The notes under the pieces were generated by a model, which saw only the letters and a program-made list of their open reading frames with translations, made no database searches and had not been told where the DNA came from. From Candidatus Poriferihabitaceae bacterium (GTDB lineage: Bacteria > Pseudomonadota > Gammaproteobacteria > Arenicellales > Poriferihabitantaceae), in the NCBI GenBank assembly GCA_965249835.1, contig CBDFMY010000003.1, positions 289,602 through 353,601 on the forward strand: 64,000 nt of DNA, written 5' to 3'. A program made the translations under genes and the position numbers. Each line of letters opens with the position of its first letter. Within the stretch, counting starts at the first letter, position 1. Below, piece by piece: positions 10,180 through 59,100 of the stretch.

Positions 10180-10206
10180 ATAACCTTGATAAAGAATTCC
10201 GGTGGT

Positions 10207-41104: not shown

Positions 41105-42478
41105 CTAAAAAAAAGTCGCGGATACCTGAAAGAGTTTTTCCACATCGGGGATGCGGCGTTTGTCGATGACAAAAATAATGACATGGTCGCCTTCGGCGAT
41201 GACGGTTTGGTCGTTGAGGCGCAATAGTTTGTCATCGCGCATGACGGCGCCGATGGTGGCGTCTTCGGGCAGTTTGATTTGCGGCAACGGGCGACCGACG
41301 ATTTTGGATGTCTTGGCATCGCCGTGGGCGACCGCTTCGATGACTTCGGCGACGCCGCGTCGCAGGGAGTGCGCGGCTTTGACATCGCCGCGTCGCACAT
41401 GGGATAGCAATGCGCTGACCGTGGCGAGGCGCGGGGAGATGGCGATGTCGATCTCGTTTTCGATGAGGTCGATGTAGGCGGTGCGGTTGACGATGGCCAT
41501 GGCGCGTCGCGCACCGAGTCGTTTGGCGAGCATCGCCGACAGGATGTTGGCTTCGTCCTCGTTGGTCAGGGAGCAAAATAATTCCATGGTGTCGATGTTT
41601 TCCTGACGCAACAATTCTTCATCGGCGGCATCGCCTTGCAACACCACCGTATTTTCCAATCGCTCCGAGACCATCTGCGCACGCGCCGGGTCGCGCTCGA
41701 TCAACTTCACCTGAAAGCCGGTTTGCTCAAGCGACTGCGCGAGGCGAAAACCGATGTTGCCGGCGCCGGCGATGATGACCCGCGTGCCCACTTCTTCGGT
41801 GCGGCGCAATTCCTGCATGACGGTGCGGATGTCGTCTTTGGTGGCGATGAAAAACACTTCGTCATCGGGTTCGATGATGGTGTCGCCGGTGGGGATGATG
41901 GCGCGGTCGCGGCGGTAGATGGCCGCCACCCGGGTGCTGACCGAGGGCAGATGATTGCCGAGTTCGCGCAACGCCTGGCCCACCAGCGCGCCGCCGTAAT
42001 ACGCGCGCAAGCCCACCAGACGAATTTTGCCGCCGGCGAAATCAATGACCTGCAACGCGCCCGGGTATTCGATTAGCCGCTGGATTTGTTCGGTAACCAC
42101 TTGTTCGGGACTGATGATGACATCGATGGGAATGCTGCCGCTGCAAAACAAATCGGGATACGCGAGGTATGCCGGCGAGCGCACGCGTGCGATTTTGGTC
42201 GGCGTGTTGAATAATGAATGAGCGATCTGGCAGGCGATCATGTTGATCTCGTCGCTGTCGGTTACCGCCAGCACCATGTCCACATCTTCCACGCCGGCGC
42301 GCAACAACACCTCCGGCGAAGACGCTTCGCCGGCGATGGTGCGAATGTCCAGACGGCCCTGCAACCCTTCCAGCACTTTGGGATTGCAGTCCACCAGCGT
42401 GATGTCGTTTTCCTCGCGCGAGAGAATTTCCGCGGTGGAAGTGCCGACCTGGCCGGCCCCCAGTATGATGATTTTCAT
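41105..42478 (-). CDS. trkA: Trk-system potassium uptake protein TrkA
   Basis: The start is refined to MKIIILGAGQVG (ATG 42478). There is a second Rossmann motif, IIAGAGNIG. Confidence 0.94.
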   Translation of the reverse strand: MKIIILGAGQVGTSTAEILSREENDITLVDCNPKVLEGLQGRLDIRTIAGEASSPEVLLRAGVEDVDMVLAVTDSDEINMIACQIAHSLFNTPTKIARVRSPAYLAYPDLFCSGSIPIDVIISPEQVVTEQIQRLIEYPGALQVIDFAGGKIRLVGLRAYYGGALVGQALRELGNHLPSVSTRVAAIYRRDRAIIPTGDTIIEPDDEVFFIATKDDIRTVMQELRRTEEVGTRVIIAGAGNIGFRLAQSLEQTGFQVKLIERDPARAQMVSERLENTVVLQGDAADEELLRQENIDTMELFCSLTNEDEANILSAMLAKRLGARRAMAIVNRTAYIDLIENEIDIAISPRLATVSALLSHVRRGDVKAAHSLRRGVAEVIEAVAHGDAKTSKIVGRPLPQIKLPEDATIGAVMRDDKLLRLNDQTVIAEGDHVIIFVIDKRRIPDVEKLFQVSATFF

Positions 42479-42494
42479 TTTCGGTTTGTGTGCG

Positions 42495-43877
42495 TTAATA
42501 TTTGTTTCCAATTTTCTTCAGGCGACAAAAATAAAACCCGTCGCCGGGGTGAACACCGGGCAATCGTTGGCGACCGAAATCGGTGGCGATGCCGAGCACG
42601 GCGTTGAGCGATTGCGCTTTCGCGTGCCCTTTTACCTGATTGGGCGCGGCTAACCATTTTTTTATCACCGCATCATTCTCCGCCGGCAGAATCGAACAAG
42701 TTACATATAGAAGTGTACCGCCTTGCTCAAGCAATGACCACACCGCCGACAACAGATCAAACTGCCGGCCGGCGAATTTTGCGACATCATCGGCGCGGCG
42801 GCGATGCTTGATGTCGGGGTGGCGGCGGATAATCCCGCTGCCGCTACACGGCACATCCAGCAAAATGCGCGCAAACAACCGGCCATCCCACCACGTTTTG
42901 GGCTGGGTCAAATCCGCCGCAACCACTTCCACTTCGCCCTCGCTACCCTCGTTGACAAGGCCGAGGCGGGCGAGATTTTGCGCCAGCCGATTAATCCGCG
43001 GCGGTAAATCCACCGCCACCATCGCCAGTTTCGGTTGACATTCGAGCAACAAGCAGGTCTTGCCGCCGGGGGCGGCGCAACCGTCCAGCACCCGCTCGCC
43101 GGGGGGTAGCGATAGTGCCCGCGCTACCAGTTGCGCTGACTCATCCTGTACCGACACCAGACCATCGGCGAATCCCGGGATTTTTTCCACCGGCATCGCG
43201 CTTGCCAGAGTCACGCCCAGTTCGCTGTCGGCGGTGGGTGTCGCTTCCATCCCGCTTGCGGCAAGCCGTTCGAGATAGGCATCGCGGCTGATTTTGCGTT
43301 GATTTACGCGCACCGTCAGCGGCGGTTTGCGATTGCTCGCTTGCATAATTTGGCGGAAGTGGTCGGGCCAATGGGTGCGGATTTCCCGGTATAACCACGG
43401 TGGAAACGAAAACCACGCCGCTGTATTTTTTTCATGCCTTTTTTCATCTGATTGTTCACTCGGTGCCAGTTCCCGCTTCAGGCGTTCGTGTTGCGCCAGA
43501 AAATTGCGCAACACACCGTTAATCATGTTGCCGGACCATTCAAACCGACCGCCGGCAACCGCCGCCACGCTCTCGCTGACAACCGCGTAGTGCGGCGTTC
43601 GCATGTGTTCCAGTTGATAGCAGCCGTTAATCAAAATGAAATGCAACACGCGATCGCGGGACTTTAGCGGCTTGCTTAACAACTGTGCGAGGATGCGGTC
43701 GAAATAATGATAATGACGACATGCGCCGTTTGCGATTTCCTGCAACCACGCACGCCGCCGTTGCGGCACCTTCGCCCGGTGAGTCGCCAGCGCAACGTCC
43801 AGCGAGCGGCCGCCATCCACCACATCCATCACCGCACGGGCGGCGACCATGTGTATTGATAATGCGTTCGAAGACAA
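42495..43877 (-). CDS. rsmB: 16S rRNA (cytosine967-C5)-methyltransferase RsmB
   Basis: 460 aa, with a NusB-like N-terminus and SAM motif LDGCAAPGGKT. Confidence 0.93.
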   Translation of the reverse strand: MSSNALSIHMVAARAVMDVVDGGRSLDVALATHRAKVPQRRRAWLQEIANGACRHYHYFDRILAQLLSKPLKSRDRVLHFILINGCYQLEHMRTPHYAVVSESVAAVAGGRFEWSGNMINGVLRNFLAQHERLKRELAPSEQSDEKRHEKNTAAWFSFPPWLYREIRTHWPDHFRQIMQASNRKPPLTVRVNQRKISRDAYLERLAASGMEATPTADSELGVTLASAMPVEKIPGFADGLVSVQDESAQLVARALSLPPGERVLDGCAAPGGKTCLLLECQPKLAMVAVDLPPRINRLAQNLARLGLVNEGSEGEVEVVAADLTQPKTWWDGRLFARILLDVPCSGSGIIRRHPDIKHRRRADDVAKFAGRQFDLLSAVWSLLEQGGTLLYVTCSILPAENDAVIKKWLAAPNQVKGHAKAQSLNAVLGIATDFGRQRLPGVHPGDGFYFCRLKKIGNKY

Positions 43878-43878
43878 G

Positions 43879-44832
43879 TCAGGTAGCGGCGGCGAAAGTC
43901 ATGCCGGGTTTAATATTCATTCCGTTCAGCAACGCCGCCACCGACATCGGCCTGCCGCCGGATTTTTGCACCTCGGTCAGCACCAGTGCACCATCGCCGG
44001 TGGCAATCGCAATACCGGTTTTATCCGCCCGGATAATTTCGCCGCGGCCGGCTTTGCCTTCGACGCGCTCGACATGCGCCGCCAACACCTTCAACTCAAT
44101 GCCGTTCAGTTCAACCAGCGTGGCCGGCCACGGATGGAAAGCGCGCACCTTGCGCGCAAGAGTCGCCGCGTCCAGCCGCCAGTCCATGGTTGCTTCGGCC
44201 TTGGTCAGTTTGGGCGCATAACCAGCCAGGCTTCGGTCTTGAACTGTCGCCGTCAATTCGCGATTAGCCAGCGCCGGCAGACTGGCAGCCAGCAACTCGC
44301 CGGCGAGGTGCGCGAGTTTTTCCTGCAACCCGCCGCCGGTGTCATCCGCGTTGATGGGAATGCGTGAGTGCGCCAGCACCGCGCCGGTGTCGAGACCATC
44401 GTCCATCTGCATCAAACTGACACCGGTGAGGTCGTCGCCGGCTTCGATGGCGCGCTGGATGGGCGCGGCGCCACGCCAGCGCGGCAAAAGCGAGGCGTGG
44501 AGATTGACGCATCCGAGCGCGGGAACGGCGAGCAACGCGGGCGGCAACAACAAACCGTAGGCCACCACCACCATCAAATCGGGTTTCAATTGTCGCAACT
44601 GCGTGGTCGCGGATTGGCCGCGCAATGATTCGGGTTGGAAAACCGGCAAGTTATGTTGCAACGCAACTTCTTTCACCGCGCTCCGGCGACGCTTTTGCCC
44701 GCGACCCGCCGGGCGCTCCGGCGCGGTGTAGACCGCCGCGACTTCCACCGAATCCGAGGCCAGCAATGCATGCAGACCGGGAACGGAAAAAGCCGGCGTG
44801 CCGGCAAACACAACGCGCATCGGGCGACTCAA
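43879..44832 (-). CDS. fmt: Methionyl-tRNA formyltransferase
   Basis: 317 aa, with HASLLPRWRGAAPIQRAI. Confidence 0.96.
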   Translation of the reverse strand: MSRPMRVVFAGTPAFSVPGLHALLASDSVEVAAVYTAPERPAGRGQKRRRSAVKEVALQHNLPVFQPESLRGQSATTQLRQLKPDLMVVVAYGLLLPPALLAVPALGCVNLHASLLPRWRGAAPIQRAIEAGDDLTGVSLMQMDDGLDTGAVLAHSRIPINADDTGGGLQEKLAHLAGELLAASLPALANRELTATVQDRSLAGYAPKLTKAEATMDWRLDAATLARKVRAFHPWPATLVELNGIELKVLAAHVERVEGKAGRGEIIRADKTGIAIATGDGALVLTEVQKSGGRPMSVAALLNGMNIKPGMTFAAAT

Positions 44833-44844
44833 TGGTCCGAGCGG

Positions 44845-45369
44845 TCAGGCGACCTGGGAGACGCCCTGAGAAGCAGCCTGGATTTCTTTTTTGATTTGCT
44901 TGCGAATCCGGCTCTGTTTGATGCGCGACAGATAATCGACGAATACCTTGCCGTTCAAGTGGTCGATTTCGTGCTGAATGCAAACCGACAACGTTTCATC
45001 GGCGGCCATCTCAAACGACTGCCCTTTCGCATCGCACGCTTTGATGGTAACCGTCTTCGCGCGCTCCACCGTGACGAACACGCCGGGCACCGACAGGCAG
45101 CCCTCTTCGGATTCGGTTTTGCCCGCGAGGTCAGAGATTTCGGGGTTGATGAACACGCGCAAGTCGTTCTTCTGTTCGGACAAATCCATCACCACCACGC
45201 GCTTCGGCACGTTGACCTGCACCGCCGCCAACCCGATGCCGGGCGCCGCATACATGGTCTGCGCCATGTCCGCCACCAGTTGCGCAAGTTCGTCGTCGAA
45301 CTCGGTCACCGGCTGCGCGACCTGCCGCAAACGCGGGTCGGGGTATGTCAGAATGTTGAGCGTGGTCAT
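44845..45369 (-). CDS. def: Peptide deformylase
   Basis: The start is refined to [15 protein letters not shown] (ATG 45369). Motifs [13 protein letters not shown] and HEIDH are present. Confidence 0.96.
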
Positions 45370-45497
45370 GAATATCCCAGGCATTCACACCGGGTGGGTG
45401 ATTATATTCCCCATCAAGAATAAACTGATACAACAGTTGTTGACCGTCGGCCAACTCCGATATGTTCAACCACTACACATATGGTGTCAAGTGAAGT

Positions 45498-46151
45498 ATG
45501 TCACACAAGAGGCGCATTAAATCTCCTGACGGCGCGTTGCAAATCATCACTCGTCGCACGTTGGCGCATTATAACCAACACGCTCGTGAGTTTCGTGTCG
45601 GCACGGATGATCACGATGTTTCGCAAAACATAGACGCGTTGCTCGCGGCGATGACGCGACCGCCGCCGTGTCGCATTCTCGATTTCGGATGCGGGCCGGG
45701 GCGGGATTTGATGCGTTTCAGCGAACTGGGGCATCAGCCGGTCGGGTTGGACGGGTCGGCGGAATTCGTCGCCATGGCGCGACAGCGCGTCGCTTGCGAA
45801 GTGTGGTTGCAGGATTTTCTCGACCTCGATTTGCCACCGTCTCGTTTTGATGGCGTGTTCGCCAACGCTTCGCTTTTTCATGTGCCGCAGCAGGCATTGC
45901 CCGATGTGTTGTGTGCGTTGTGGAAAACCCTCGACTCCGATGGCGTGTTGTTCGCATCCAATCCGCGCGGCGACAACCGGGAGGGTTGGAACGGAAGCCG
46001 CTACGGGTGTTACCACGACCGGCGTCAATGGCGCGGCTATGTCGAAGCGGCCGGCTTCGTTGAGTTGCATCACTACTACCGGCCGGCCGGCAAACCGCGC
46101 GACCAGCAACCGTGGCTGGCAACGCTGTGGCGAAAAACAAACGCGGATTGA
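45498..46151 (+). CDS. Class I SAM-dependent methyltransferase (substrate unknown)
   Basis: 217 aa, with motif I ILDFGCGPGRD. Confidence 0.8.
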   Translation: MSHKRRIKSPDGALQIITRRTLAHYNQHAREFRVGTDDHDVSQNIDALLAAMTRPPPCRILDFGCGPGRDLMRFSELGHQPVGLDGSAEFVAMARQRVACEVWLQDFLDLDLPPSRFDGVFANASLFHVPQQALPDVLCALWKTLDSDGVLFASNPRGDNREGWNGSRYGCYHDRRQWRGYVEAAGFVELHHYYRPAGKPRDQQPWLATLWRKTNAD

Positions 46152-46156
46152 TGCGG

Positions 46157-47713
46157 TTATTTATGTTCGGGTGTGTTCGCGCATTCCGCGCCGTATCGCT
46201 CGCGCAATTCGCGCTTGAGGATTTTCCCGGCGGCATTGCGCGGGAATTGTTCCAGCACCAACGCATCAGCGAGGCGTTGGAACTTGGCATCGACACGCTG
46301 GTTGACCCAGGCGATGAGGTCGGCGGGCCTTAATTCGCCAACTTCGCCGATGCAAGTGACGGCGGCGACCGGTGCTTCGCCCCACTTCGGATGGGGCGCG
46401 CCGAACACCGCCACCTCGCTCACCGCCGGGTGGCGGATGACCACTTCCTCGATGTCCCTGGGATACACATTGGCACCGCCGCTGATGATCATGTCTTTTT
46501 TGCGGTCGACCAAAAATACAAAGCCGTCTTCGTCCATGTAGCCGAGGTCGCCGGAATGTAGCCAGCCGTTGCGGATGGCTTGCCGGGTCATTTCCGGCTG
46601 GTTGTAATAGCCCGGCATGAGTAACGGCCCGCGTCCGCAGATTTCGCCGATGACCTGGGGCGGACACGGCTGATCGTTTTCATCGAGGATGCAGGCTTCG
46701 GTGAAGGCGGCCGGGCAACCCACGGAACCGGCTTTGGCGAGCGCGTCGTTCTTGTCGAGGATGGTCATGAAACCTTCGGTGATGCCGTACAGTTCGTAGA
46801 ATCTACCGGGTAGCACTTCGTGTATCTGCTGCTTGCAGGCAAGATGCAACGGCGCGCCAACGCTACCGAGCATTTCCAGCGAAGCGAGTTTTGCCGGATC
46901 AAACCTCGCACTATTGAGGATGGCGATAATCTGCGCCGGCACCAGGATGACGTGGGTGACGCGCTGCGCGGCGATGGTCTCGATGAAACGCTCGGCGTCG
47001 AAACTCTCGTGCAGGAGGTAACGGCAACCGAGATACATCCACGGCATAAAAGTAAGCATGGCGCCGTTGAACACCAGCGCGCCGGCATGAAGCACCACGC
47101 TTTCCGGGGTCATGCGCCAGGCGTTGGCGAACAGCGTGCAATACATGGCGCGAACGCGGTGGCTGTGAACGATGCCCTTGGGCGCGCCGGTGGTGCCGCT
47201 GGAATACATAATGTTGTAGGGGTCATCGCCTGTGATATCAACGGCCGGGTCAGCGGTGGAGGCGGCGGCGGTGAATCGGGCGTAGGTCTGGAAGCCGTCA
47301 GGGGCAGCCTCGTCGCCGCTCAGGATATAGCGGTCGCGGGCAATGCCCGCGAGGTGCGGACGAATGGAATCCAGTGTCTCGGCGTGGTCGGGGTCGGCAA
47401 GCACCAGTTTGCTGTGGGAATCCCGCAACAGTTTCTGCAAACCACCGGGGCGCAACAAGGTGCTGCACGGGACGATAACGATGCCGCTTACCGCGGCGGC
47501 CCAGTAGGCGGCAAGCAACTCAAACCCGTTGGGCAGCACGGTGGCGACCTTGTCGCCCTTCACCAACCCGCAGTCCAACCATGCGTTGGCGAGGCGGTTG
47601 ACCTCGCGATTCAATTCGGCAAATGAATACTCACGGCCGGCGAACGCCAGCGCCACCTGCTCGGGGCGGCAACGGGCGTGATGAGCGAGTAGCCGGGAAA
47701 TCGTCGGCATCAT
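46157..47713 (-). CDS. AMP-dependent acyl-CoA synthetase/ligase
   Basis: AMP-binding signature YSSGTTGAPKGI is present. The start is refined to MMPTISRLLAHH (ATG 47713). The track start 47827 lies inside the MTase gene. Confidence 0.9.
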   Translation of the reverse strand: MMPTISRLLAHHARCRPEQVALAFAGREYSFAELNREVNRLANAWLDCGLVKGDKVATVLPNGFELLAAYWAAAVSGIVIVPCSTLLRPGGLQKLLRDSHSKLVLADPDHAETLDSIRPHLAGIARDRYILSGDEAAPDGFQTYARFTAAASTADPAVDITGDDPYNIMYSSGTTGAPKGIVHSHRVRAMYCTLFANAWRMTPESVVLHAGALVFNGAMLTFMPWMYLGCRYLLHESFDAERFIETIAAQRVTHVILVPAQIIAILNSARFDPAKLASLEMLGSVGAPLHLACKQQIHEVLPGRFYELYGITEGFMTILDKNDALAKAGSVGCPAAFTEACILDENDQPCPPQVIGEICGRGPLLMPGYYNQPEMTRQAIRNGWLHSGDLGYMDEDGFVFLVDRKKDMIISGGANVYPRDIEEVVIRHPAVSEVAVFGAPHPKWGEAPVAAVTCIGEVGELRPADLIAWVNQRVDAKFQRLADALVLEQFPRNAAGKILKRELRERYGAECANTPEHK

Positions 47714-47723
47714 GGTCGGGGCA

Positions 47724-49250
47724 TTATTTCCGCGTGAGCAAATCTTCCTGCAAAGGGTTTCCGGTAATCGGATGCGCGAGCGGCGGCAGGTTTGGCATTT
47801 TTTTGTCGCTGGCGAAGTATTCTTCAATTGACCACATCACCAGTCGGTTATATGAAGTTACCCCTTGCTGTAGTTTGCCGGCATCGGCGATACATTGTTT
47901 TACCGTTTTCGTGTTCCATTTTTGCATGGTGATGAATAGGCCGATGGACGCATAGCCGCTGGTGATTTGCGACAACAGCGCCTTCAGGTCGCTTACATTC
48001 GGTGCGCCGCCTTTTACCTGGGCATAGCACATCCCCTCTTCACCCTCCGGCGGTTGCAGCAAACCGGCTCTGCCATCCACACCACCATCGCCGGTTTGTT
48101 TGGTGTTAGACAGAAAGCCGGGGATGAGATGCACCGCCCATTTCTCGAAAACGAACGGATGCTTTGTCGCCATATCTTTTGCCGCATCCAAATCAAAAGG
48201 CACGCCTTTTACAACAAATTTCGCGTTTTTCATGCGTTCCTTTTGAATTACTTCCAACGCATAAAACGAAATATCAACGCCGATAAATTTTCGTTTTAAT
48301 TTCATCGCCGCTTCAATGGTAGTCCCGCAACCGCAAAACGGATCGAGAACCACATCACCTTCATTACTTGATGCTTTGATTATTCGATCAAGTAACGCAA
48401 GCGGCTTTTGTGTGGGATAACCAAGGCGCTCCTTGCTTGAATTGTTGATTTTGTCAATTGCCCAAACACTGGAAACAGGCGAACCATATTTCATGGCTTC
48501 GTCCAAATAGCGTTTAATCCGTTTTCCACCACCAGCATCTGATAACACATATTTGCGCCCGTCCTTGTCTTCGCACACCTTTTGTCTTCTGGTCTTAATG
48601 TATTCTTCTTCACTTTTCCACGGACGGCTGTAGCCATTAAAATGGCCGGCTTTCTTTTTGGCGTAAAAGAAAATGCAATCATGTCTGCTCTCAAACTTAT
48701 CTTTCAGCCGTTTGTTCCATCCACTGTAACTCCAAATTATTTCATTTTTATAATTTTTCACTCCAAACACATCATCCATAATTATTTTCAAGTAATGCGA
48801 AGCGGTCGGGTCGCAGTGCAGATAAATACTGCCATCATTTTTCAGTATGCGGTGCATTTCATTGATGCGGTCAGCCATATAAATCAGATACGCCAACATT
48901 CCGTTGCCGTCTTTGAAGAACATATCCAACGCCATCACCGAATTGCGTGCTTTGTGACCCACCGATCTTTTAATTTGAGCGATGCGCTCGGCGGTTTTTT
49001 CGCTCCATTCCCAGGTGTCGCTAAATGCGGTCATTTGCGCGAGGTCTTTGCGCTTCGTGGCTTGGCTATCTTTGCTCTTTTTTCTGCCAAACAAAATGTT
49101 GTAGTTGGCATCGGAGTTAAACGGCGGGTCCAGATAAATCAAATCCACGCAAGCATCGGGCCATAGTTTCATCACATCCCAGCAATCACCGTAATACAAC
49201 GTGTTGGGTTGCATGGAGAGGTCTAGTTGATTTTTCCCGGCCATGTTCAA
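47724..49250 (-). CDS. Beta-class N6-adenine/N4-cytosine DNA methyltransferase fused to a C-terminal Mrr-like PD-(D/E)xK domain
   Basis: Motif IV DLIYLDPPFNS (aa 36-46) precedes motif I VLDPFCGCGTT, which is the beta permutation. The last ~160 aa carry TGDGGVDGRA...CYAQVKGG (D...QxK), as in Mrr-type nuclease cores. G+C is lower than in the flanks. Confidence 0.85.
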   Translation of the reverse strand: MNMAGKNQLDLSMQPNTLYYGDCWDVMKLWPDACVDLIYLDPPFNSDANYNILFGRKKSKDSQATKRKDLAQMTAFSDTWEWSEKTAERIAQIKRSVGHKARNSVMALDMFFKDGNGMLAYLIYMADRINEMHRILKNDGSIYLHCDPTASHYLKIIMDDVFGVKNYKNEIIWSYSGWNKRLKDKFESRHDCIFFYAKKKAGHFNGYSRPWKSEEEYIKTRRQKVCEDKDGRKYVLSDAGGGKRIKRYLDEAMKYGSPVSSVWAIDKINNSSKERLGYPTQKPLALLDRIIKASSNEGDVVLDPFCGCGTTIEAAMKLKRKFIGVDISFYALEVIQKERMKNAKFVVKGVPFDLDAAKDMATKHPFVFEKWAVHLIPGFLSNTKQTGDGGVDGRAGLLQPPEGEEGMCYAQVKGGAPNVSDLKALLSQITSGYASIGLFITMQKWNTKTVKQCIADAGKLQQGVTSYNRLVMWSIEEYFASDKKMPNLPPLAHPITGNPLQEDLLTRK

Positions 49251-49313
49251 AAAGTAAGGAGAATTAAAGGTTGGATTATAGCCACTTTACCCGCCATTCG
49301 CTGACAAAACAAA

Positions 49314-49411
49314 CTATCGCAGACAACCAAGCGTGGCTTCCAGACCGGCCATGATAAGCGGAATCTGTTCGCGGCGACACGCAACCACCGACAAGCGAAA
49401 CCAGTTGCCGC
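49314..49411 (-). pseudogene. Displaced duplicate of the 3' end of the aminotransferase gene at 50773-52044
   Basis: It translates as ...NWFRLSVVACRREQIPLIMAGLEATLGCLR*. The live C-terminus is ...NWFRLSVGACRRQQIPLIMASLEAALAKVEG*. A hand-made ungapped alignment gives 65/77 identical nt. Confidence 0.8.
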
Positions 49412-49425
49412 GCCGGCGGACATAA

Positions 49426-50589
49426 TCACAACGGCTCGGTGCCTTCGGCGAGGATGCTGAGATATTGGCTATACGCGAACACTTGCCTGCGTTGCCGCCC
49501 GCTGATTTCTTTTACGATGTTCAAGTCGATGAGATGACCGACCGCGGTTCGCACGGTCGGCGCCGACAAGCCCAGCGCTTTGGCGGTGGCCGGTATGACG
49601 ATGAGTGGATTGCTCTGCAAGTGCTCGTGCACGCGCAAGGTTGATGCGGATGCATGACGCAATCGCTCGCGGTCATTGTCGAACAATTTCAAAATTCGTT
49701 GCACGCTCTCGGCCGCTTGCTCGGAGGTTTCCTTGATGCCGGTCAGGAAAAATTCAATCCATCCTTCCCAATCGCCGTGCTCGCGGACGCGCTGCAACCA
49801 ATCATAGTATTCGTCGCGTCTGTTCTTCAGGAACAAACTCAAATACAAAATCGGTTGTTGCAACGCGCCCTCGGCGTGTAGCAAAAAAGTAATCAACAAA
49901 CGCCCGAGCCGACCGTTGCCGTCGAGGAACGGGTGAATGGTTTCGAATTGCACATGCGCAAGCGCGGCTTTAGTCAGCAGCGGCATCGCCGGGCTACGCT
50001 GGTGAATGAATTTTTCCAAATCGCTCATGCATTGCATAACTTCGTTCGCCGGTGGCGGCACATAGCGAGCGGTGCCCGGACGCGTGCCGCCGACCCAGTT
50101 CTGGGTGCGGCGAAACTCGCCGGGTTGTTTGTCGCTACCGCGACCTTTGGCGAGCAATTTGGCGTGGACTTCCCGCAACAATCGATTGGACAACGGCATG
50201 CCTTGTTCCAGTTGCGTCATGCCGTGCTCCATCGCGTTGACATAAAGCGATGTTTCCAACACATCATCCGGCGACGCGTCCGATGCATCGTCAACACCCA
50301 CGCGCAACAAGTCGGCGAGCGATGATTGGGTGCCCTCAATCTGTGCCGACAGCACCGCCTCCTTGCGCACATACATGTAAACAAACAATTTCGGGTTGGG
50401 CAAAGTCGCGCTCATGCCGTCCAGTCGCCCCAGTGCGCGATTGGCTTGCTCCAACAACGCGAGATGCGGCTCCAGACGCAACGGTGGACCGGGCGGAAGC
50501 GGTGTCGGGATGAACGCACGCACCTGCTCGCCCGGCGTGGTGCTGATGGCGTATCGCCCAGTTTGGCGGGATCGGACGAGGTTGGGCAT
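49426..50589 (-). CDS. fic: Fic-family protein (class II, SoFic-like: Fic_N + Fic core + C-terminal wHTH)
   Basis: It has the Fic motif HPFLDGNGRLGRLL and the N-terminal inhibitory-helix motif SAQIEG ((S/T)xxxE(G/N)). 387 aa. Confidence 0.9.
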   Translation of the reverse strand: MPNLVRSRQTGRYAISTTPGEQVRAFIPTPLPPGPPLRLEPHLALLEQANRALGRLDGMSATLPNPKLFVYMYVRKEAVLSAQIEGTQSSLADLLRVGVDDASDASPDDVLETSLYVNAMEHGMTQLEQGMPLSNRLLREVHAKLLAKGRGSDKQPGEFRRTQNWVGGTRPGTARYVPPPANEVMQCMSDLEKFIHQRSPAMPLLTKAALAHVQFETIHPFLDGNGRLGRLLITFLLHAEGALQQPILYLSLFLKNRRDEYYDWLQRVREHGDWEGWIEFFLTGIKETSEQAAESVQRILKLFDNDRERLRHASASTLRVHEHLQSNPLIVIPATAKALGLSAPTVRTAVGHLIDLNIVKEISGRQRRQVFAYSQYLSILAEGTEPL

Positions 50590-50625
50590 AGCGAAAGAAA
50601 AGTTTCTTTACGGATTAGTAAAGAA

Positions 50626-50654
50626 AGTATATGGTCTGTTTTTTTCTTTGTCAA
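50626..50654 (-). promoter_or_regulatory. Sigma70-type promoter of fic embedded in TTTCTTT/AAAGAAA heptamer repeats
   Basis: The minus strand reads TTGACA (50654-50649), a 17-nt spacer, then TATACT (50631-50626). Confidence 0.6.
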
Positions 50655-50689
50655 CGCATAAAGAAAATTTTTCGCCGTTTTATTTCCTT

Positions 50690-50779
50690 ATTCACGAGGA
50701 CGAAAACCGCTCGTCTTGCCTCAATTTTTCCCCCATTCACGAGGACGAAAACCGCTCGTCTTGCCTCAATTTTTACCCC
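50690..50779. repeat. 2 x 45-bp tandem direct repeat spanning the aminotransferase stop codon
   Basis: The unit is ATTCACGAGGACGAAAACCGCTCGTCTTGCCTCAATTTTT(C/A)CCCC. The two copies are identical at 44/45 positions. Confidence 0.95.
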
Positions 50780-52044
50780 TCAACCTTTGCCAACGCGGCT
50801 TCCAAACTCGCCATGATGAGCGGAATCTGTTGGCGACGACACGCGCCGACCGACAGGCGGAACCAGTTGGCGCAGTTGTTTGCACCAAACCACGAGAATG
50901 GCAGGATGCCGATTTTGGCTTCGTTCAATAAATATTCCTGCGCCGCCGCATCGTCATCCAGTGGCTTGTCGCCGGCGCGTTTGCCGAGCAGGTCGATTTG
51001 GACGCTGAGATAAATCGCCGCTTGCGGCGCAATCACGTCCACCGCGTAGCCTTTGTTTTTGAGCGTCATAAATCCGGCGTGGAATGTCTCAAGGCGCGCC
51101 GCCAGCCGCGCGCGAAATTGGCTCAAGTGCGCATCCACTGCACGCTCGTCCGCGAGAAAAATACCGGTGGCGATTTGTTCGGGTTTCGGTGCCCACGCGC
51201 CCATGTGGGCAATCAGCGATGACATTTTCATAATGACTTGACGCGGACCGGTACCCCAGCCGACGCGAACGCCGGTGGCCGCGAATGCCTTGGACATGCC
51301 GTCGACAAAAATTGCGTAATCGCGAATTTCGGGACATACCGACAGCGGATGCCGGAAGGCGTTGTGGTTGCTGTCGGCGTCGGCGAAAGTAAGCGCCCAA
51401 TACACCTGATCGAACATGACATAAAGCGGTTTTTGGTTCCGATTGCGCCGGTAATTCTCCGCCACAACCAATTCGCAGATGTCTGTCAGGTTTTGCTCGT
51501 TGAACAAAGTGCCGGTGGGATTTTGCGGCGAACACAACGCCAGCAGGACCGCGTCTTTGATATGCGGCGCAATGGCTTCGGCGGTGGGCATGAAATGATT
51601 TTTCGCAGTGGTTTCAACGCACGCGGTTTGCGCCCCGACCAGGGCGGCGTAACTTTCGTTATTCCACGACGGCACCGGATACACCACGAGTTCGCCGGGG
51701 TCGACGATGGCGCGGTAGATGGCGTAGATAATCGGGCGCGAACCGCAAGCGATGATGACATCATCGGCCTCATAGTCGAGATGGCAGACGCGGTTCAACC
51801 AGTTGGCCACGCCACTTCGAATCTCCGGCATCCCGACCGCCCCCGGATAGTTGGTTTGATGATCGCGGTAGGCGGCGATGATGGCTTCGGTCAAACCATC
51901 GGGAATCGAAAAGAGGGTTGGATCAAAATCCCCGACGGTGAGGTTGTGCAAGGTCTCGCCGCGTGCCTGTCGGGCGTTAATCTCCGCGGCGATGGTCAGA
52001 ATCGGCGAAGTCGTGATTTGTTCGGCGAGGCGGGAGAGTTTCAT
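50773..52044 (-). CDS. Class I/II PLP-dependent aminotransferase (aspartate/aromatic-like)
   Basis: The start is refined to MKLSRLAEQITTSPIL (ATG 52044). The PLP-Lys region is DGMSKAFAATGVRVGW. Confidence 0.88.
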   Translation of the reverse strand: MKLSRLAEQITTSPILTIAAEINARQARGETLHNLTVGDFDPTLFSIPDGLTEAIIAAYRDHQTNYPGAVGMPEIRSGVANWLNRVCHLDYEADDVIIACGSRPIIYAIYRAIVDPGELVVYPVPSWNNESYAALVGAQTACVETTAKNHFMPTAEAIAPHIKDAVLLALCSPQNPTGTLFNEQNLTDICELVVAENYRRNRNQKPLYVMFDQVYWALTFADADSNHNAFRHPLSVCPEIRDYAIFVDGMSKAFAATGVRVGWGTGPRQVIMKMSSLIAHMGAWAPKPEQIATGIFLADERAVDAHLSQFRARLAARLETFHAGFMTLKNKGYAVDVIAPQAAIYLSVQIDLLGKRAGDKPLDDDAAAQEYLLNEAKIGILPFSWFGANNCANWFRLSVGACRRQQIPLIMASLEAALAKVEG

Positions 52045-52189
52045 GGCGGATGTGGCGGGAATTATATCTTTAATTATTGCGCGGTTACGGTGATGCCATC
52101 GCTGACATCCGGCTGCCGACATTAATTAAAGGCAAATTAAAAGATATACTCCGCACAATTCTCCCCGCAGTTCACGCAAGACGGTAACC

Positions 52190-53284
52190 ATGCTCGCTTA
52201 TATCATTCGCCGATTGTTGCTGGTGATTCCGACATTGTTCGGGATTATGGTAATCAATTTCGCCATCGTGCAATTCGCGCCGGGGGGTCCGGTGGAGCAA
52301 GCCATTGCCACCTTTCAGGGACTCAGCGTGGATGCCACCAGCCGTTTTTCCGGAACCGGTTCGGATGTGCAGGGCATTCAGAGCGGCGGTCACGGGGTCA
52401 GCAAATACCGCGGCGCGCAGGGACTGCGGCCGGAAATTATCGCCCGAATCGAAAAGCAGTTCGGTTTTGACCAGCCGCCGCACCGGCGTTTTTTGAAGAT
52501 GATATGGGATTACGCGAGGTTTGATTTCGGCGAGAGTTATTTCAGCAACAAGCGCGTGGTTGATTTGGTCGTGGAAAAAATGCCGGTGTCGATCTCGCTG
52601 GGGTTATGGACCACGCTGATCGTGTATCTGGTTTCCATTCCCCTGGGAGTGCACAAAGCGGTGCGCGACGATTCGCGCTTTGACGCATGGAGTAGCGGCG
52701 TGATTGTCGCCGGTTATGCAATTCCGAGTTTTTTGTTTGCAGTTTTGCTGATCGTGCTGTTTTCCGGCGGGCGCTATTTAGATTGGTTTCCACTGCGCGG
52801 GCTGACCAGCAACGGTTGGGAATTGCTGCCGTGGTGGCGACAGATTCTGGATTACTTCTGGCACATCACGTTGCCGGTTTTGTCCATGGTGATCGGCGGA
52901 TTTGCCGGGCTCACCATGCTCACCAAAAATTCGTTTCTCGACCAAATAAAATTGCAGTATGTGCAAACCGCGCGCGCCAAAGGGCTGTCGGAAAATCAGG
53001 TGCTGTATGGCCATGTATTCAGGAATGCAATGTTGATCGTGATCGCCGGTTTCCCCGCCATGTTCATCGGCATCCTGTTCACCGGCGCGCTACTGATCGA
53101 AGTAATTTTTTCTCTTGATGGCCTCGGTTTGCTCGGTTACGAAGCGGCAATCAACCGCGATTACCCGGTGATGTTCGCCATCCTCTACCTGTTCACGCTA
53201 ATCGGAATGTTGATGCAGATTATCCGCGATGTGATGTATACGATCATCGACCCGCGCATTGATTTTGAATCACGAGAAGTGTGA
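52190..53284 (+). CDS. yejB: Microcin C / peptide ABC transporter permease YejB
   Basis: 364 aa, [37 protein letters not shown]. It has a 4-nt overlap with the next gene. Confidence 0.85.
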
Positions 53285-54372
53285 TGGAGGAGACGCGCAT
53301 CACCGACCAACCCTTGCAACAAGGCGCGAGCCAAACCCTGCTCGGCGTGAAACTGTCGCCGCTGGATGCACGACGCTGGCAGAACTTTCGCGGCAACGCG
53401 CGCGGCTACTGGTCGCTGTGGATTTTTCTCGCACTATTCACCGTCACCCTGTTTTCGGAACTCGTTGCCAACGACAAACCGATGCTGGTGCGTTATGACG
53501 GTGCTTTTTACACGCCGGTTCTTTTTGATTATTTTGAAACCGACTTCGGCGGCGAGTTTGAATTGGAAGCGGATTATCACGAACCGTATATTCAGAATTT
53601 GATCGCCGCACGCGGCTGGATTGTATGGCCGGCGATTCCCTGGGCCTACGACACCATCGACTACGACCTCAGCACACCGGCACCGGCACCGCCTTCGGCG
53701 CGCCACTGGCTTGGCACCGATGACCAGGCGCGGGATGTGCTGGCGCGAGTCTTGTATGGCTTTCGCATTTCCGTATTGTTCGGGTTGGCACTGACTTTGC
53801 TGAGTTCGGTCATCGGCATCGCGGCCGGCGCGGTGCAGGGATATTTCGGCGGGCTTACCGATCTTTTGATGCAACGCTTCATCGAAATCTGGGAAGGGCT
53901 GCCGGTTTTGTATCTGCTGATTATCATGGCCGCGGTGATTCAGCCGGGCTTCACCAGTTTATTGATTCTGATGCTGTTGTTTTCCTGGCCCGGGCTGGTG
54001 GCGGTGGTGCGCGCGGAATTTTTGCGTGCGCGCAACTTCGAATACATCCGCGCCGCACGCGCCCTCGGCGTGTCGGATGCGACCATCATGTATCGACACA
54101 TTCTGCCCAATGCCATGGTGGCGACCCTGACCTTCATGCCATTCATATTGAGCGGCTCGGTGACCACCCTCACCGGCCTCGACTTTCTCGGCTTCGGCTT
54201 GCCGGCCGGTTCGCCCTCCCTCGGCGAAATGCTCAATCAAGGCAAAAACAATTTGCAGGCGCCGTGGCTCGGCATCACCGGCTTCGTGGTCATCGGCCTC
54301 ATGCTTTCGCTGCTGGTGTTCATCGGCGAAGCGGTGCGCGATGCGTTTGACCCGAGGAAGTTATTTCAATGA
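53281..54372 (+). CDS. yejE: Microcin C / peptide ABC transporter permease YejE
   Basis: 363-aa BPD-type permease, overlapping yejB and yejF by 4 nt each. Confidence 0.85.
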
Positions 54373-56114
54373 ACGACACCAGCAACGCGCCGCTGGTGGT
54401 GGAAGATCTGTCGGTCAGTTTCCGCCGGCACACAGGCTCCGGCAAGCACCGGCGAGAACTCATCACCGATGTGGTCAAGGGCGTGTCGTTCGAATTGCAC
54501 GCCGGCGAGACTCTGGCACTGGTGGGCGAGTCGGGCTCCGGCAAATCGCTAACCGCGCTGTCGATATTGCAATTACTGCCCTATCCCCAGGCGTTCCACC
54601 CCGGCGGCTCGGTTCGCCATCACGGCAACGAACTGGTCAACGCCGACCCGCAGACGTTGCAGCGCATTCGCGGCAACGAAATTTCGATGATCTTTCAGGA
54701 ACCGATGACCGCGCTCAATCCCCTGCACACCATCGAAAAACAAATCGGCGAGTCGCTGGCTTTGCACCAGAGCATCAGCGGCGATGCCGCGCGCGCACGA
54801 ACGCTTGAATTGCTCGACGAGGTCGGCATAGACGCGCCGCACACTCGACTCGGTGCCTGGCCGCATCAATTATCCGGCGGACAACGCCAACGCGTGATGA
54901 TCGCCATGGCGCTCGCCAACCGACCCGAAATATTGCTCGCCGACGAGCCCACCACCGCGCTGGATATGACCGTGCAGGCGCGCATTCTGGCGTTGCTGAA
55001 GGATCTGCAACGTACCGAAAATCTGGGGCTACTGCTGATTACCCACGACCTCAACATGGTGCGCAAAATCGCATCGCGGGTGCTGGTAATGAAGGACGGG
55101 CGGATGGTGGAGCGCGGCCCGACCGAGCGCATATTCGTCTCCGCCCGGCAACCGTATACGCAAAAACTGCTGTCGGCCGAACCGCCGCCAAGGACACCGC
55201 CGGTGGGCAAGGGCACGGAAATCCTCGCGGTGGAGAATCTCAAGGTGTGGTTCCCGCTGCGGCGCGGTTTATTGAAGCGCACCGTGGGCCACATCAAGGC
55301 GGTCAGGCACGCTTCGGTGAAACTGTATTCGGGACACAGCCTCGGCGTGGTGGGTGAATCCGGCTCCGGCAAAACCACGCTGGCACTGGCGGTGTTGCGG
55401 CTGCTGAAATCATCCGGGCGCATTACCTTTGACGGTCGCGCTATTGACACCCTGCCACGCCGCGCTTTGAGCCCGTTGCGTCGACAAATGCAAATCGTCT
55501 TTCAAGACCCCTTCGGCTCGTTGTCGCCGCGCATGTCGGTGGGCGAAATCGTCAGCGAAGGACTGGATGCCCATGGCCTCATCCACGACCCGGCCGAGCG
55601 CGACCGGCGCGTGGTGGAGATTCTCCGCGAAGTGGACATAGACCCCGAAGTTCGCTTTCGCTATCCCCACGAATTCTCCGGCGGCCAGCGTCAGCGCATC
55701 GCCATCGCCCGCGCCCTGATTCTGCAACCGAAAATTTTATTCCTTGACGAACCCACCTCCGCTCTTGACCGCACCGTACAGGTGCAGGTGCTGGCGTTGT
55801 TGAACCGCATCCAGCAACAACACGGGCTCGCATTTGTGTTTATCTCCCACGACTTGAGCGTGGTGAAATCGCTCGCCGATGAACTCATGGTGATGCGCGA
55901 TGGCGAGGTGGTGGAGCAAGGGGACGCCCAATCCATTTTCGCCCACCCGCAACATCCCTACACTCGCGAATTGCTGCACGCGGCGTTTGACCTTGCGCCG
56001 GGGCAATCATCGCCGCCGTCGGGAATGCCCGACAACGGGAATGCCCACAATGGGAATGATCCTCGCCGAAGCGAAATCAACCAAGCGAGCCGGCCCGCAG
56101 ACGGTTCAGAATGA
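54369..56114 (+). CDS. yejF: Peptide ABC transporter ATP-binding protein YejF (two fused ABC cassettes)
   Basis: Two Walker A motifs ([20 protein letters not shown]) and two LSGGQRQR signatures are present. Confidence 0.9.
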
Positions 56115-59100
56115 AATCGGCTTGCTGGGTTTCGGCAGTTTCCAGCGCCGCACGATGCCATCGATCGATCTCGGCGGCATCGGCCAATCCGCCTTTGGCC
56201 GCGGCTTGCGCTTTGATTTCGAGTAGGCATGGCAACCACCATCTTTCGCCGAACCGCCGCACCATAGCGAGTGCGCCCTCGGCCGCCTGCATGGCACCGC
56301 GATAATCCACTACGGCAAGACGCGCTTCCGCCAGCAGTCCATGAAAATAGGGCAGAAACAACTTGCCGTAGTTGTCCTCGTAGCATCGCAGGTTACTTTC
56401 CATGCGGCGAACTTCGCGGCACTTGTCTCTCGCCTCGCTGGTGTCGGATGAATCATCGCGCTGCATCACGTGGCAGAACGCGCGAAACAAATTGCCCGCC
56501 GCCAGCAGCCCTTCAAAGCCGTAGGTTTGCGCGAGCGTCACCGTCTCTTCGGCCAACGCGCCGAGTGGTTTGAGGTCGCCGGCAATCTGTTGATACATGG
56601 CCGCCACCCGCAACGTCTCGGCCACGGTGTAGGGATGGCCGATGGCGCGCGCCGCTTCCACCGACTTGTCGATCTCCGCGACCGATTGCGGAACTTTATT
56701 GAGCAGTAACTTATTGACCGCTCCGAGCCCGCGGATGGTTATATATGGATCCTGCCCGAAACGCACCCTGAGACTTTTGTTCGAACTCTGGTCGTAGAGA
56801 TTCACCGCCTTGTCGTAAAAATATTCCGCCGCGGCGAACTTTCCGGTGACCATGCGCGTCATGCCCTGCAACCCGAACGCGGTCATCATCAACTCCGGGT
56901 CGCGGGATTTTTCGCTCAGGGATTTCAGTTTCACCGACACGCGCACCGATTGGGAAAACGCCGCTTGAGACACCAGGCAACGCCACAGTCCGTATAACGC
57001 AGTCCACGCCTGTCGGTCATCGCCGTCGGCGTTGGCAAGCACCAACGCCTGCTCGTAGGTGTGCGTAACCTGCTCGCCGTGGTAGCCGGAACGGGCGGTC
57101 AGCGCGACCCCGAGATTTAACAGCAACGCCAGTTCGCGCTTCCTTCGCGGTTCCCCGTCGGGCAGGTCGGCGGCCAGTCGCAAACCCTGGGAAAGATGTT
57201 GCAACGACTCGTTGGTTGCCGATTGCGCAATCGCTTGCTCGCCGGCCCTCAGCCACAAATCCACCGCACGGTCGGTGCACTCGGTGTGGCTGTAATGATG
57301 GGCGATCAACTCCGGATGCTGTTGCCCGATGTCGGGGTTGTCCTGCTGCAGAAGTTCGGCGATTTGCAGATGGTATCGCTGCCGGGTTTTCTTCAACAAC
57401 GAATGATAGGCGGCATCCTGAAACAGGGCATGACGAAATTCATAACGATCCTCCGCGGCCTCGGGAATCACCGAGAGTAGGTCGGCCGCCAGCAGGGCAT
57501 CCATACCGGCATCAGCACTGATATGGTTTTGGGATGCCACTTTGCTGATGAGCGAGTAGCGAAAATCGCCGCCAAATGTAGCCGCCAACTGGGCGAATGA
57601 CTTGGCTTCGCCGAGGCGGTCAAGACGCGCATTCAAAGAATCCTGAAGCGTGTCGGGAATGGTGAACAGACCATAATGCTCGCCGGCACCGATGTTTTCG
57701 CGGATTTGATTGGCTTCCATTTTTTTGGCGCGCGGCTGCGAGCGCATTTGGTCGAGCAAGTGGCGGCTGGTTTCTTCCAGAAATAACGGCACGCCGCCGC
57801 TTTTGCCGATGATTCTTTGCGTAACCGCCGCCGGCAACGCATGCGCACCGGACACCGCCGCGATCAGGCGCGCCGACGAGTCGGCATCCAGCCCGCCGAG
57901 TTTCATCTCCACCAGCGTTGCCGCATCCGGCCACGGCATAACGAAGCCGCTACGCGAAGTGAACACGGCGAATAGTTTTTCCGCGCCGGCGCCCGAGACG
58001 ATACCGCTGAGTACTTCCAACGTGGATGGGTCGGCCCAATGCAAATCTTCCACCACCAACAGCAGCGGACGCAATCGCGACAGCCGAATGACAAAACTGA
58101 TCAGAGCGTCCACCGTGCGATAGTGTTTTTCTTCGGCGCTGATGTCGCCAATCGCTCCGATGGGTGCTTGCGCCGATGCCGGTGGTATGCCCAACAACTC
58201 GTTGAACAATGCGTGTTCATCTTTGCCGTCCAGTTCAATGGCGATCATCGCCCGCCGAATGTTCTCCCGCCGCGTCTCGAAATCGTCGTGCTCGCCGATT
58301 TGCAACCAACGGTGGGTTTCGTCGACGATCGGCTTGAACGGGCTACCCTGAAAATAGGGCGAACAAGTTACCCGCAGTCGATACAGTTCGGGCTTGTGAA
58401 TGGTTTTTTCAAAAGCCCGCAACAGCCGCGACTTGCCGATGCCGGGGTCGCCGCAAAGATGAATGATGCGACAACGACCATCGAGGGCATGCAGGTAGTT
58501 TTCCCGCAGACACCGCAGTTCCCGCTGGCGGCTGACAAAGCGCGTGGTGACTCGCTTCAACGAAGTGGTGGAACGATTTTGGAAAGTGCTCTCGTGGAGA
58601 ATTTGCCAGACACCTATCGGCTCGGTAAAACCTTTGACCCGGTGCTCGCCGAGATCGCGAAACTTGAATGCGCTACCCACCAGCCGACGAGTTCGCAACG
58701 CGGTTACCACGCTGTTCGGTTCGGCGAGGCTTTGCAAACGTGCGGCGAGATTGGGTGCTTCGCCGAAAATCAGTTCATCCTGATCGCGCCGATTGCCGGC
58801 ACGCTCGCCGACCACCACCAGACCGGTGGCGATGCCGATGCGAATGCCGATTGCCTCGCGCCCGCGCCACTTCTCGGAGGCATTGTTGCGCTTGATTCGT
58901 TCGACCATTTCCATGCCGGCACGCACCGCGTGTTCGGGATCGAATTCGCTGGCAAGCGGATGACCGAACAACACCAAAATGCCATCGCCGAGATAATTGG
59001 AAATGTGCCCGTGATATTTCTCGGCGACTTCGGCGCACAACGTTTGGAACACGCGGATTTCATCCGCCAGATCTTCCGGGTCCAACGCCACCGAGCGCGA

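Follow-up and report, generated by a model that had tools for sequence, protein, structure and literature searches.

A repeated aminotransferase gene end beside a SoFic gene: a probable recombination scar at an integrase-free defence hotspot in sponge symbionts

A 64-kb stretch of DNA (referred to below as the window) carried an 80-nt direct repeat of the 3' end of an aminotransferase (AT) gene on the two sides of a fic gene. The two copies are probably two different AT 3'-end alleles, one of them stranded by recombination at an integrase-free defence hotspot, and not an att pair. All features of the site are given in window coordinates, and all of them lie on the minus strand.

The repeat search reported one family, consisting of direct repeats at 49332–49411 and 50794–50873 that aligned over 80 nt without gaps at an offset of 1462 (84% identity). 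Self-BLASTN of positions 50700–51100 against the whole 64-kb window gave the repeat as the sole significant second match (85 nt, 83.5%, E 8.8e-20); the remaining matches had E values of at least 0.02. The original prediction of an ungapped repeat of about 77 nt at an offset of 1,462 nt was thus borne out, and its similarity was significant (E 9e-20). The predicted translations of both copies were correct (upper ...NWFRLSVGACRRQQIPLIMASLEAALAKVEG, lower ...NWFRLSVVACRREQIPLIMAGLEATLGCLR), and the boundary of homology had rightly been placed 14 nt below the fic stop (the stop codon lies at 49426–49428 and the repeat ends at 49411). Between the copies lay what had been listed there, namely fic (49426–50589), a sigma70 promoter, two 45-bp units (50680–50769), and nothing else. 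The lower copy was, as had been proposed, an AT 3' end lacking a gene body, with its stop at 49314–49316 and with an in-frame stop and about 12% divergence in the sister strain (L081). The longest identical run between the copies was 13 nt and fell within a codon-conserved stretch, and the identity of the copies (64/78) was not above that of AT-end orthologues from other genomes (up to 68/78). The two copies ended in different tails, AKVEG* in the functional copy and G[C/R]LR* in the remnant, and each tail had orthologues in other genomes.

The AT gene (50773–52044) encoded a class I/II PLP-dependent aminotransferase of 423 aa (PF00155, E 1e-39) and was the core gene bounding the variable site on the left. 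Orthologues were found in Ca. Poriferihabitaceae/Arenicellales MAGs; the gene was intact and colinear with them through to the stop codon, and its protein had 100% aa identity to P0121 of L081. The functional repeat copy was the 3' end of this gene (50794–50873, tail ...ALAKVEG*; repeat search and self-BLASTN). This end was identical in L081 (78/78), and in L167, which has no fic, 70/78 positions were identical, with 89% identity over the whole AT gene. The AKVEG* tail occurred in L167 even though fic is missing from that genome. Tails of the AKVEG*/AKLEGG* type were atypical, occurring in L167 and otherwise only in fic-bearing genomes, L082 among them. A metagenome scan with the AT protein yielded only two moderately close loci, one being an empty site and the other having no ligase beside AT.

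The lower copy was an orphaned AT 3' end, a pseudogene fragment of 98 nt (49314–49411, tail ...ATLGCLR*) that was detected by repeat search and self-BLASTN and had no upstream ORF. Its decay was observed directly in the comparison of the window with L081: 10/78 positions of the remnant differed (about 12%) against 0/78 in the functional copy, and the in-frame stop of L081 arose from TGG -> TGA. This divergence sat inside a patch where the constrained fic gene differed by about 4%. Eight of the 10 differences fell at AT-frame third codon positions, which is odd for pure neutral decay, in a small sample. The remnant tail, together with the letters that follow it (CGATAGTTTG), matched the RLR-type AT ends of L003, L169, and L087. 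The remnant was present only where fic and the methyltransferase gene (MT) abut, in the window and L081, and no second AT-end copy was found in L003, L167, L168, L169, L001, L002, or L082. The fic stop and the remnant were separated by a 14-nt joint (49412–49425), a candidate illegitimate junction that was homologous neither to AT nor to what follows fic in L082. The joint was short and GC-rich, had no clear assignable microhomology, and differed between the window and L081 at about 3/14 positions.

The fic gene (49426–50589) encoded a SoFic-family Fic/AMPylase of 387 aa with the architecture Fic_N + Fic + wHTH according to Pfam (Fic_N 9e-27, Fic 1e-19, HTH_24 8e-5). Its translation carried HPFLDGNGRLGR, corresponding to the HxFx(D/E)GNGRxxR motif, and SAQIEG, corresponding to the N-terminal inhibitory (S/T)xxxE(G/N) motif. 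The PADLOC SoFic model was matched over its full length (E 5e-120, model positions 5–359 of 361), but the score with NCBIfam ProtAdlyltaseSoFic was below the cut-off (151 bits, cut-off 550 bits); Fic was therefore assigned as a member of the SoFic family and not as an equivalog. The predicted fic product belongs, by its sequence, to the SoFic anti-phage family. An exact-sequence look-up of this Fic returned no record.

A fic promoter (50603–50654) was identified by promoter scan and sequence reading as TTGACA-17-TATACT with the overlapping palindrome TTTCTTTAC-N6-GTAAAGAAA; in the scan it was near-consensus for sigma70 (50654->50626, 11/12 matches). The palindrome was conserved in L082 and is a candidate operator that may be bound by the C-terminal wHTH of Fic. 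Two tandem 45-bp units (50680–50769, copies 91% identical) represented a duplication of the hairpin region behind AT that is specific to this strain: the unit was single in L081, a homologous lone hairpin was present in L082, and no further copies were found in the window. The folding of the 45-bp unit and of the remnant was not above the shuffled-sequence level, and neither Rfam matches nor terminators were found for them. The AT-fic spacer was homologous to that of L082 along its full length (z ~30), and AT end, spacer, and fic were colinear with L082. From this block homology, AT end and fic were taken as one block common by descent. Downstream of fic, no homology was found between the window and L082. 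More distant SoFic genes adjoined type I R-M and DarTG clusters, not AT, and no bracketing repeats were found at the other SoFic loci (L083–L086).

On the other side of the remnant lay the MT promoter and leader (49251–49303), with homology to the fic-less L167 resuming about 11 nt past the remnant stop. The MT gene (47724–49250) encoded a type II-like N6/N4 DNA methyltransferase with a weak C-terminal Mrr_cat match (PF01555, E 3e-49; PADLOC MTase_II) and lay in a GC trough of 0.41–0.49, with surroundings of about 0.55–0.63. It was present in L003, L167, and L081 and absent from L001, L002, L005, L082, L168, and L169. A central MTase block (48235–48909) was swapped, showing more than 110 mismatches and about 150 gap columns between the window and L081 with flanks 0–3% divergent; the window shared 49–75% identity with L167 and 75–91% with L003 in this block, which is probably the target-recognition region. 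On the right, the variable site was bounded by the core gene of an AMP-forming acyl-CoA ligase (46157–47710; Pfam AMP-binding, E 4e-76), which came straight after AT in the empty-site genomes. Import of MTase and ligase from an L003-like donor after the split of the window and L167 had been suggested by aa identities and was ruled out, since nt identity between the window and L167 was 91–95% throughout MT and ligase outside the swapped central block. A strict link of the RLR* tail to the MTase was also ruled out, as L169 and L087 carry RLR* at an empty site.

Five site states were observed among the sponge-symbiont relatives compared: AT-ligase, which is the empty site (L001, L002, L005, L087, L168, and L169), AT-MT-ligase (L003), AT-fic-ligase (L082), AT-spacer-MT-ligase (L167), and AT-fic-remnant-MT-ligase (the window and its sister strain L081). 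These states agree with the prediction that fic is a discrete accessory insert with empty sites in relatives, and with the assignment of the MTase, outside the repeat pair, to a separate layer of acquisition, since fic is missing beside the MT of L003 and L167, and MT is missing beside the fic of L082.

A clean replacement was observed between L003 and L168, whose flanks were 94–95% identical and in which a 1,717-nt MT block stood in place of 36 nt. The left break determined by BLAST was in the last four AT codons, with differences clustering over the last ~14 codons and the tail changing from DKLS* to DRLR*; the right break was at the ligase ATG, and there was no duplication. This comparison shows that homologous recombination at the AT end and the ligase start suffices to move a cargo gene here. 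Divergence between the window and L081 was patchy along 19.5 kb, which together with the swapped central MTase block points to frequent recombination.

In L167, the closest fic-less genome, fic and the remnant were replaced by about 260–285 nt containing that genome's own REP-like repeats, and the junction was not a precise excision. Under a scar model, L167 needs an extra step, the replacement of fic plus remnant. Quartet site patterns were 16:6:10 in the AT 3' part (16 for window+L082) and 9:11:11 in the ligase, with saturation at about 20% divergence; sites grouping the window with L082 were only weakly overrepresented in the former. The flank identities of L082 were discordant (PERM1 87% and AT 5' part 82%, both about as for L003; ligase 76% vs 85%).

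No tyrosine or serine recombinase was found in the 64-kb window or in the 21-kb homologous locus. The neighbours in the window were transporters, AT, Fic, MTase, ligase, Def, Fmt, RsmB, and Trk, and among 20 further large ORFs screened with Pfam there was only a truncated rve_3 (DDE) ORF at 7851–8471, 41 kb away. An integron cassette with attC found no support, as folding was not above that of shuffled sequence, no Rfam match was obtained, and no IntI-like gene was present.

In the explanation proposed here, the AT/ligase intergenic site would be an integrase-free hotspot where single defence genes (SoFic, MTase) are gained, lost, and swapped, and exchange would usually proceed by homologous recombination whose arms are the AT end and the ligase start. 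Because the AT end would serve as a recombination arm, cargo would travel with an attached piece of foreign AT end. In the ancestor of the window lineage, a second cargo would have been added beside the first through one homologous crossover and one illegitimate joint, so that one AT end would have been stranded between fic and MTase and not replaced; it would later have decayed as a pseudogene. We infer the one-sided illegitimate joint and place it 14 nt after the fic stop. For the order of arrival there are two options: an AT-MT genome may have received fic together with a new AT end, or an AT-fic genome may have received MT together with a foreign one. The site has several marks of a scar of homology-facilitated illegitimate recombination (HFIR), with a continuous homology anchor on one side, a displaced gene-less 3' fragment just downstream, and, in relatives, alternative occupants and clean homologous replacement with a swap of the AT tail (L003/L168).

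It is unlikely that fic is a present or former site-specific integrative cassette at the AT 3' end, with attL/attR-like copies and a recombinase acting in trans or lost (CIME-like). The geometry fits such a cassette, since the repeat begins near one point and extends to the gene end, but L082 has the same block of AT end, hairpin, promoter, and fic without a distal repeat. The functional tail is atypical and the remnant keeps a common tail of the xRLR*/xKLS* type, yet L167 carries AKVEG* without fic. The copies share an identical run of 13 nt, and erosion could have brought an old att pair down to the present level of identity; this level equals that of orthologues between genomes. Empty sites also exist, but plain homologous recombination is how the MTase moves at this site, other SoFic loci are neither beside AT nor bracketed by repeats, and 64 kb hold no tyrosine or serine recombinase. 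The att-like, integrase-type mechanism of the original prediction was accordingly not supported, on account of the L082 block, the orthologue-level copy identity, and the recombinase search in the 64 kb and the 21-kb homologous locus, and a cassette "aimed at" the AT gene did not agree with the type I R-M and DarTG neighbours of the more distant SoFic genes. We consider it quite unlikely that the extreme 3' end of AT serves specifically as an insertion target for single-gene defence cassettes that lack a recombinase of their own, are mobilised in trans by some recombinase, and each bring a surrogate tail (AKVEG* with SoFic, RLR* with MTase). In that case two cassettes would have accreted much as CIMEs do, and the internal copy of the AT end would mark their attI-like junction.

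Duplication in situ, by which the resident AT 3' end would have been copied by slippage or tandem duplication, fic would have inserted between the two ends, and the distal end would have decayed, is very improbable. The reconstructed ancestral remnant was marginally nearest to the functional copy of the window (11 differences, against 14–20 to other genomes; their 5/1/5 split by codon position favoured neither duplication nor two alleles), both copies have in common a Leu codon (IPLIMA) unseen in other genomes, and the nearby 45-bp tandem duplication shows that local duplication happens. The tails, however, are not a few substitutions apart, with AKVEG*/AKLEGG* in L167 and L082 and RLR* followed by TAGTTTG in L003, L169, and L087, and at the positions where the resident copy reads RQQ and AS, the remnant shows REQ and AG, as other genomes typically do. 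Barely credible is a remnant region kept for a function, either as a SoFic antitoxin-like small ORF (49429->49247, GTGA overlap with the fic stop) or as a regulatory RNA or leader. E. coli SoFic was reported with a 47-aa downstream antitoxin, AS1 (PMC12249575), and in the window and L081 a 60-codon ORF starts exactly at the fic stop; but this ORF differed at 13/61 residues between strains with ~99% identical flanks, 8/10 remnant differences hit its second codon positions, and a conserved small ORF after fic was absent in L082–L086. An AS1-like antitoxin ORF over the remnant was set aside because it was not conserved, and the folding and Rfam results given above speak against an RNA.

Read as a recombination scar, the locus would be a small, clean example of defence-gene turnover in uncultured sponge symbionts at a hotspot free of integrases, and the orphaned gene end a physical record of cargo moving with pieces of a core gene. 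It also warns of a common annotation trap: accessory DNA bracketed by a direct repeat of a gene 3' end is not enough to call an att site or an integrative element. Apart from this turnover record and annotation warning, the locus adds no new mechanism.

Genomic islands, CIMEs, and phages that integrate at the 3' end of a gene carry a surrogate end (cf. Williams 2002). As in these elements, a direct repeat of a gene 3' end brackets accessory DNA here and the gene is intact. The site differs from them in having no recombinase in 64 kb and no conserved identical core; moreover, the same fic block also occurs without the distal repeat, and the cargo family is elsewhere untied to AT.

SoFic is a single-gene anti-phage (abortive infection) system with a Fic AMPylase (PMC12249575). 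The Fic of the window resembles it in the full-length model match, the Fic_N, Fic, and C-terminal domains, the catalytic and inhibitory-helix motifs, and the adjoining R-M genes. It differs in its score below the NCBIfam equivalog cut-off (151 vs 550 bits) and in that a search for an AS1-like antitoxin ORF found none; its role in phage defence is a prediction.

The cDHS1 and cDHS2 loci of P. aeruginosa are integrase-free core defence hotspots for which homologous recombination through the flanks was proposed (PMC10250203). Like them, the AT/ligase site has fixed core-gene flanks, variable defence content including empty sites, and deviant GC, and is not obviously any class of MGE. It holds 0–2 genes compared with a median of 26 kb there, lies in uncultured sponge symbionts in a different phylum-level context, and shows a visible recombination scar.

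At T6SS/Rhs loci, an incoming module is anchored by upstream homology, the displaced 3' end is kept downstream, and HFIR was proposed (PMC5361080). Displacement of 3' ends with orphan fragments was described for Rhs, CDI, and T6SS effector-immunity loci (PMC5361080; Jackson 2009, de Vries & Wackernagel 2002, and Prudhomme 2002, cited therein). In contrast to those loci, the anchor at the present site is a housekeeping aminotransferase and not a polymorphic toxin, the cargo consists of defence genes (SoFic, MTase), and there is one orphan and not an array, by a mechanism that we infer from comparative genomics alone. The likeness lies in the module whose homology to a conserved upstream gene anchors it, in the former 3' end pushed downstream as a gene-less fragment, and in clean homologous replacement as the commoner outcome at the same locus.

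All genes of the stretch from the aminotransferase (AT) to the AMP-forming acyl-CoA ligase were on the minus strand. The AT gene (50773–52044) came first in gene order and was followed by two 45-bp units (50680–50769), the fic promoter (50654 to 50626) and fic (49426–50589). After a gap of 14 nt came a gene-less AT 3'-end fragment (49314–49411; the remnant), and then the promoter of a DNA methyltransferase (MTase), the MTase gene (47724–49250) and, last, the ligase gene (46157–47710). GC content showed a trough (0.41–0.49) at the MTase; that of fic was near-native. A repeat search showed that the remnant and the functional AT end shared an ungapped direct repeat of 80 nt (49332–49411 and 50794–50873; 84% identical, offset 1462, longest run of identity 13 nt), the sole significant self-match of this region within the window (E 8.8e-20). 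The repeat of the original prediction was thus confirmed, and its translations, 14-nt gap and inventory between the copies were all right on re-check.

The nearest genomes to the window were sponge-associated Ca. Poriferihabitaceae/Arenicellales MAGs. Among the homologous loci, the site was empty in L001, L002, L005, L087, L168 and L169, with the ligase following AT within 25–95 nt; L003 had AT-MTase-ligase without fic; and L082 (Fic 83% identical) had AT-fic-ligase with neither MTase nor remnant. The sister strain L081 (Fic 98%, AT 100% identical) had the architecture of the window, with one 45-bp unit and a stop codon in the remnant, and a second AT-end copy was present in none of the compared genomes except the window and L081. 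In L167, the closest fic-less relative (AT 89% identical), the order was AT with the tail AKVEG-stop, an unrelated spacer of about 285 nt, MTase promoter, MTase and ligase, and neither fic nor remnant was found at the site. The empty sites bore out that fic is accessory, and the MTase proved to be a separate layer, as predicted: L003 and L167 had the MTase without fic, and L082 had fic without the MTase.

The AT-fic spacer of the window was homologous to that of L082 over its full length (hairpin, promoter, palindrome, fic); downstream of fic, no homology was found between the two. Homology between the window and L167 reached the AT stop or slightly beyond, at most some 20 nt into the hairpin, and restarted about 11 nt past the remnant stop. 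Because the window and the distant L082 shared the full hairpin-fic arrangement, the most plausible reading of L167 is that it lost fic and remnant secondarily. The L167 spacer held a REP-like element dispersed in that genome. Two copies of its motif (about 37 nt, CGCYTGCCRGCGARRATKACGGGYTGGGAKGTTTT) lay in the spacer that takes the place of fic and remnant (L167:9297–9636), and three more lay within 17 kb (roughly L167:7137, 7796 and 14093), apparently intergenic by approximate coordinates; no copy was found in the window or the other loci.

The two copies in the window agreed at 64 of 78 nt, and orthologous AT ends of different genomes agreed at up to 68 of 78. The functional tail, AKVEG-stop, was also found in L167 (AKLEGG-stop in L082), and the remnant tail, G(C/R)LR-stop followed by TAGTTTG, was also found in L003, L169 and L087. 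Identity was at the level of orthologues and the tails differed; therefore, the copies are two alleles of one gene end, and judged by sequence they would be neither a recent duplication nor an att site recently divided by recombination. Window and L081 had the same sequence in the functional copy, but 10 of 78 positions differed in the remnant, which appears to be unconstrained. The remnant sits in a diverged patch (50109 to 48235) that extends on one side over the 3' half of fic (about 4% diverged) and on the other over the 5' part of the MTase. In the dead AT frame, eight of the 10 differences (49332–49411 against L081:11184–11261) hit third codon positions. Such an excess is unexpected for a pseudogene; functional AT alleles might have been the source of imported patches, though the sample is small.

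The original prediction took fic to be an att-flanked integrative cassette aimed at the AT 3' end. The displaced gene end stood, whereas the att-like mechanism was not supported: L082 carried the fic block without a distal repeat, and within 64 kb there was no tyrosine or serine recombinase, just a truncated rve_3 ORF 41 kb away. Moreover, L167 had the AKVEG-stop tail without fic, the identity of the copies was not above orthologue level, and more distant SoFic genes (68–73% identical) had type I R-M and DarTG clusters as neighbours and lacked both an adjacent AT and bracketing repeats. An eroded, trans-mobilised att-type element is improbable as the source of fic. Duplication of the AT end in situ is unlikely, each tail having separate orthologues. 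As a further reading, the remnant could be covered by a small ORF with a function like that of AS1, the antitoxin of E. coli SoFic (PMC12249575), but this ORF was not conserved: 13 of 61 residues differed between the sister strains, and a counterpart was absent in L082–L086. An Rfam search gave no family matches, and folding was not special.

Comparison of L003 with L168 showed flanks of 94–95% identity and a 1,717-nt MTase block in place of 36 nt. By BLAST, the left break lay in the last 4 codons of AT, with differences already clustered over its last 14 or so codons (DKLS-stop to DRLR-stop), and the right break lay at the ligase ATG; there was no duplication. The comparison shows homologous recombination via both flanks, the foreign AT tail moving with the cargo. 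Divergence between the window and L081 was patchy over 19.5 kb (41000–60500), difference-free kilobase runs alternating with patches of 2–4%. The central block of the MTase (48235–48909, minus strand) was swapped relative to L081 (more than 110 mismatches and about 150 gap columns; flanks 0–3% divergent), and was 75–91% identical to L003 versus 49–75% to the closer relative L167. The swap probably gave the enzyme another target-recognition domain and with it another specificity. The mosaic divergence and the swapped block indicate frequent homologous recombination in the population.

Elsewhere in the window, the truncated DDE transposase ORF (rve_3, 206 aa; 7851–8471, plus strand) was directly upstream of dprA (8520–9620, plus strand), with topA further downstream (10186–12642). 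DprA is a DNA-processing protein of natural transformation. Adjoining rpoBC-sized ORFs was an ORF of 1,009 aa (12804–15833, minus strand) that has a Sacsin-type domain at its N terminus and NOV_C at its C terminus.

The Fic protein had Fic_N, Fic and C-terminal wHTH domains, the catalytic motif HPFLDGNGRLGR and the inhibitory-helix motif SAQIEG. It matched the PADLOC SoFic anti-phage family over its full length (E 5e-120), although its score was under the NCBIfam equivalog cut-off. Its neighbour was a type II-like N6/N4 MTase, so that AT and the ligase enclose a predicted defence islet of two genes. A perfect palindrome, TTTCTTTAC-N6-GTAAAGAAA (50603–50626), abutted the -10 hexamer of the fic promoter (1 nt shared); it was also kept in L082 and may serve as operator for autoregulation by the wHTH. 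The 45-bp unit occurred once in L081, and L082 had a single homologous hairpin. The tandem duplication was specific to the window and started inside the last codons of AT, GGGGTAA being copied as GGGGGAA, and it folded no better than shuffled sequence. The SoFic genes of L083–L086 (68–73% identical) bordered type I R-M operons and adjoined DarT/DarG-like genes, and L084 had a second Fic (RhuM-Fic) within the R-M operon, which points to repeated association of SoFic with R-M in the genomes of sponge symbionts.

We propose that two events placed one cargo next to the other: a homologous crossover within one flank, and illegitimate joining 14 nt past the fic stop. One AT end would thereby have been stranded between the two cargo genes. 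L003 versus L168 is a direct precedent, an RLR-stop-type AT arm moving along with the MTase. On the left flank, L082 matched the window no less closely than L003 did (PERM1 5' part 87%, AT 5' part 82%), and the AT 3' part was somewhat closer to L082 (77.9% vs 72.5%; quartets 16:6:10). The L082 ligase was far more distant (76% vs 85%; 74–79% to every genome among the window, L003 and L001), and the right flank of L082 seems, from these identities, to have a different history. [quoted passage not shown] On this model, the locus is a defence hotspot that bears one more example of an already known type of recombination scar.
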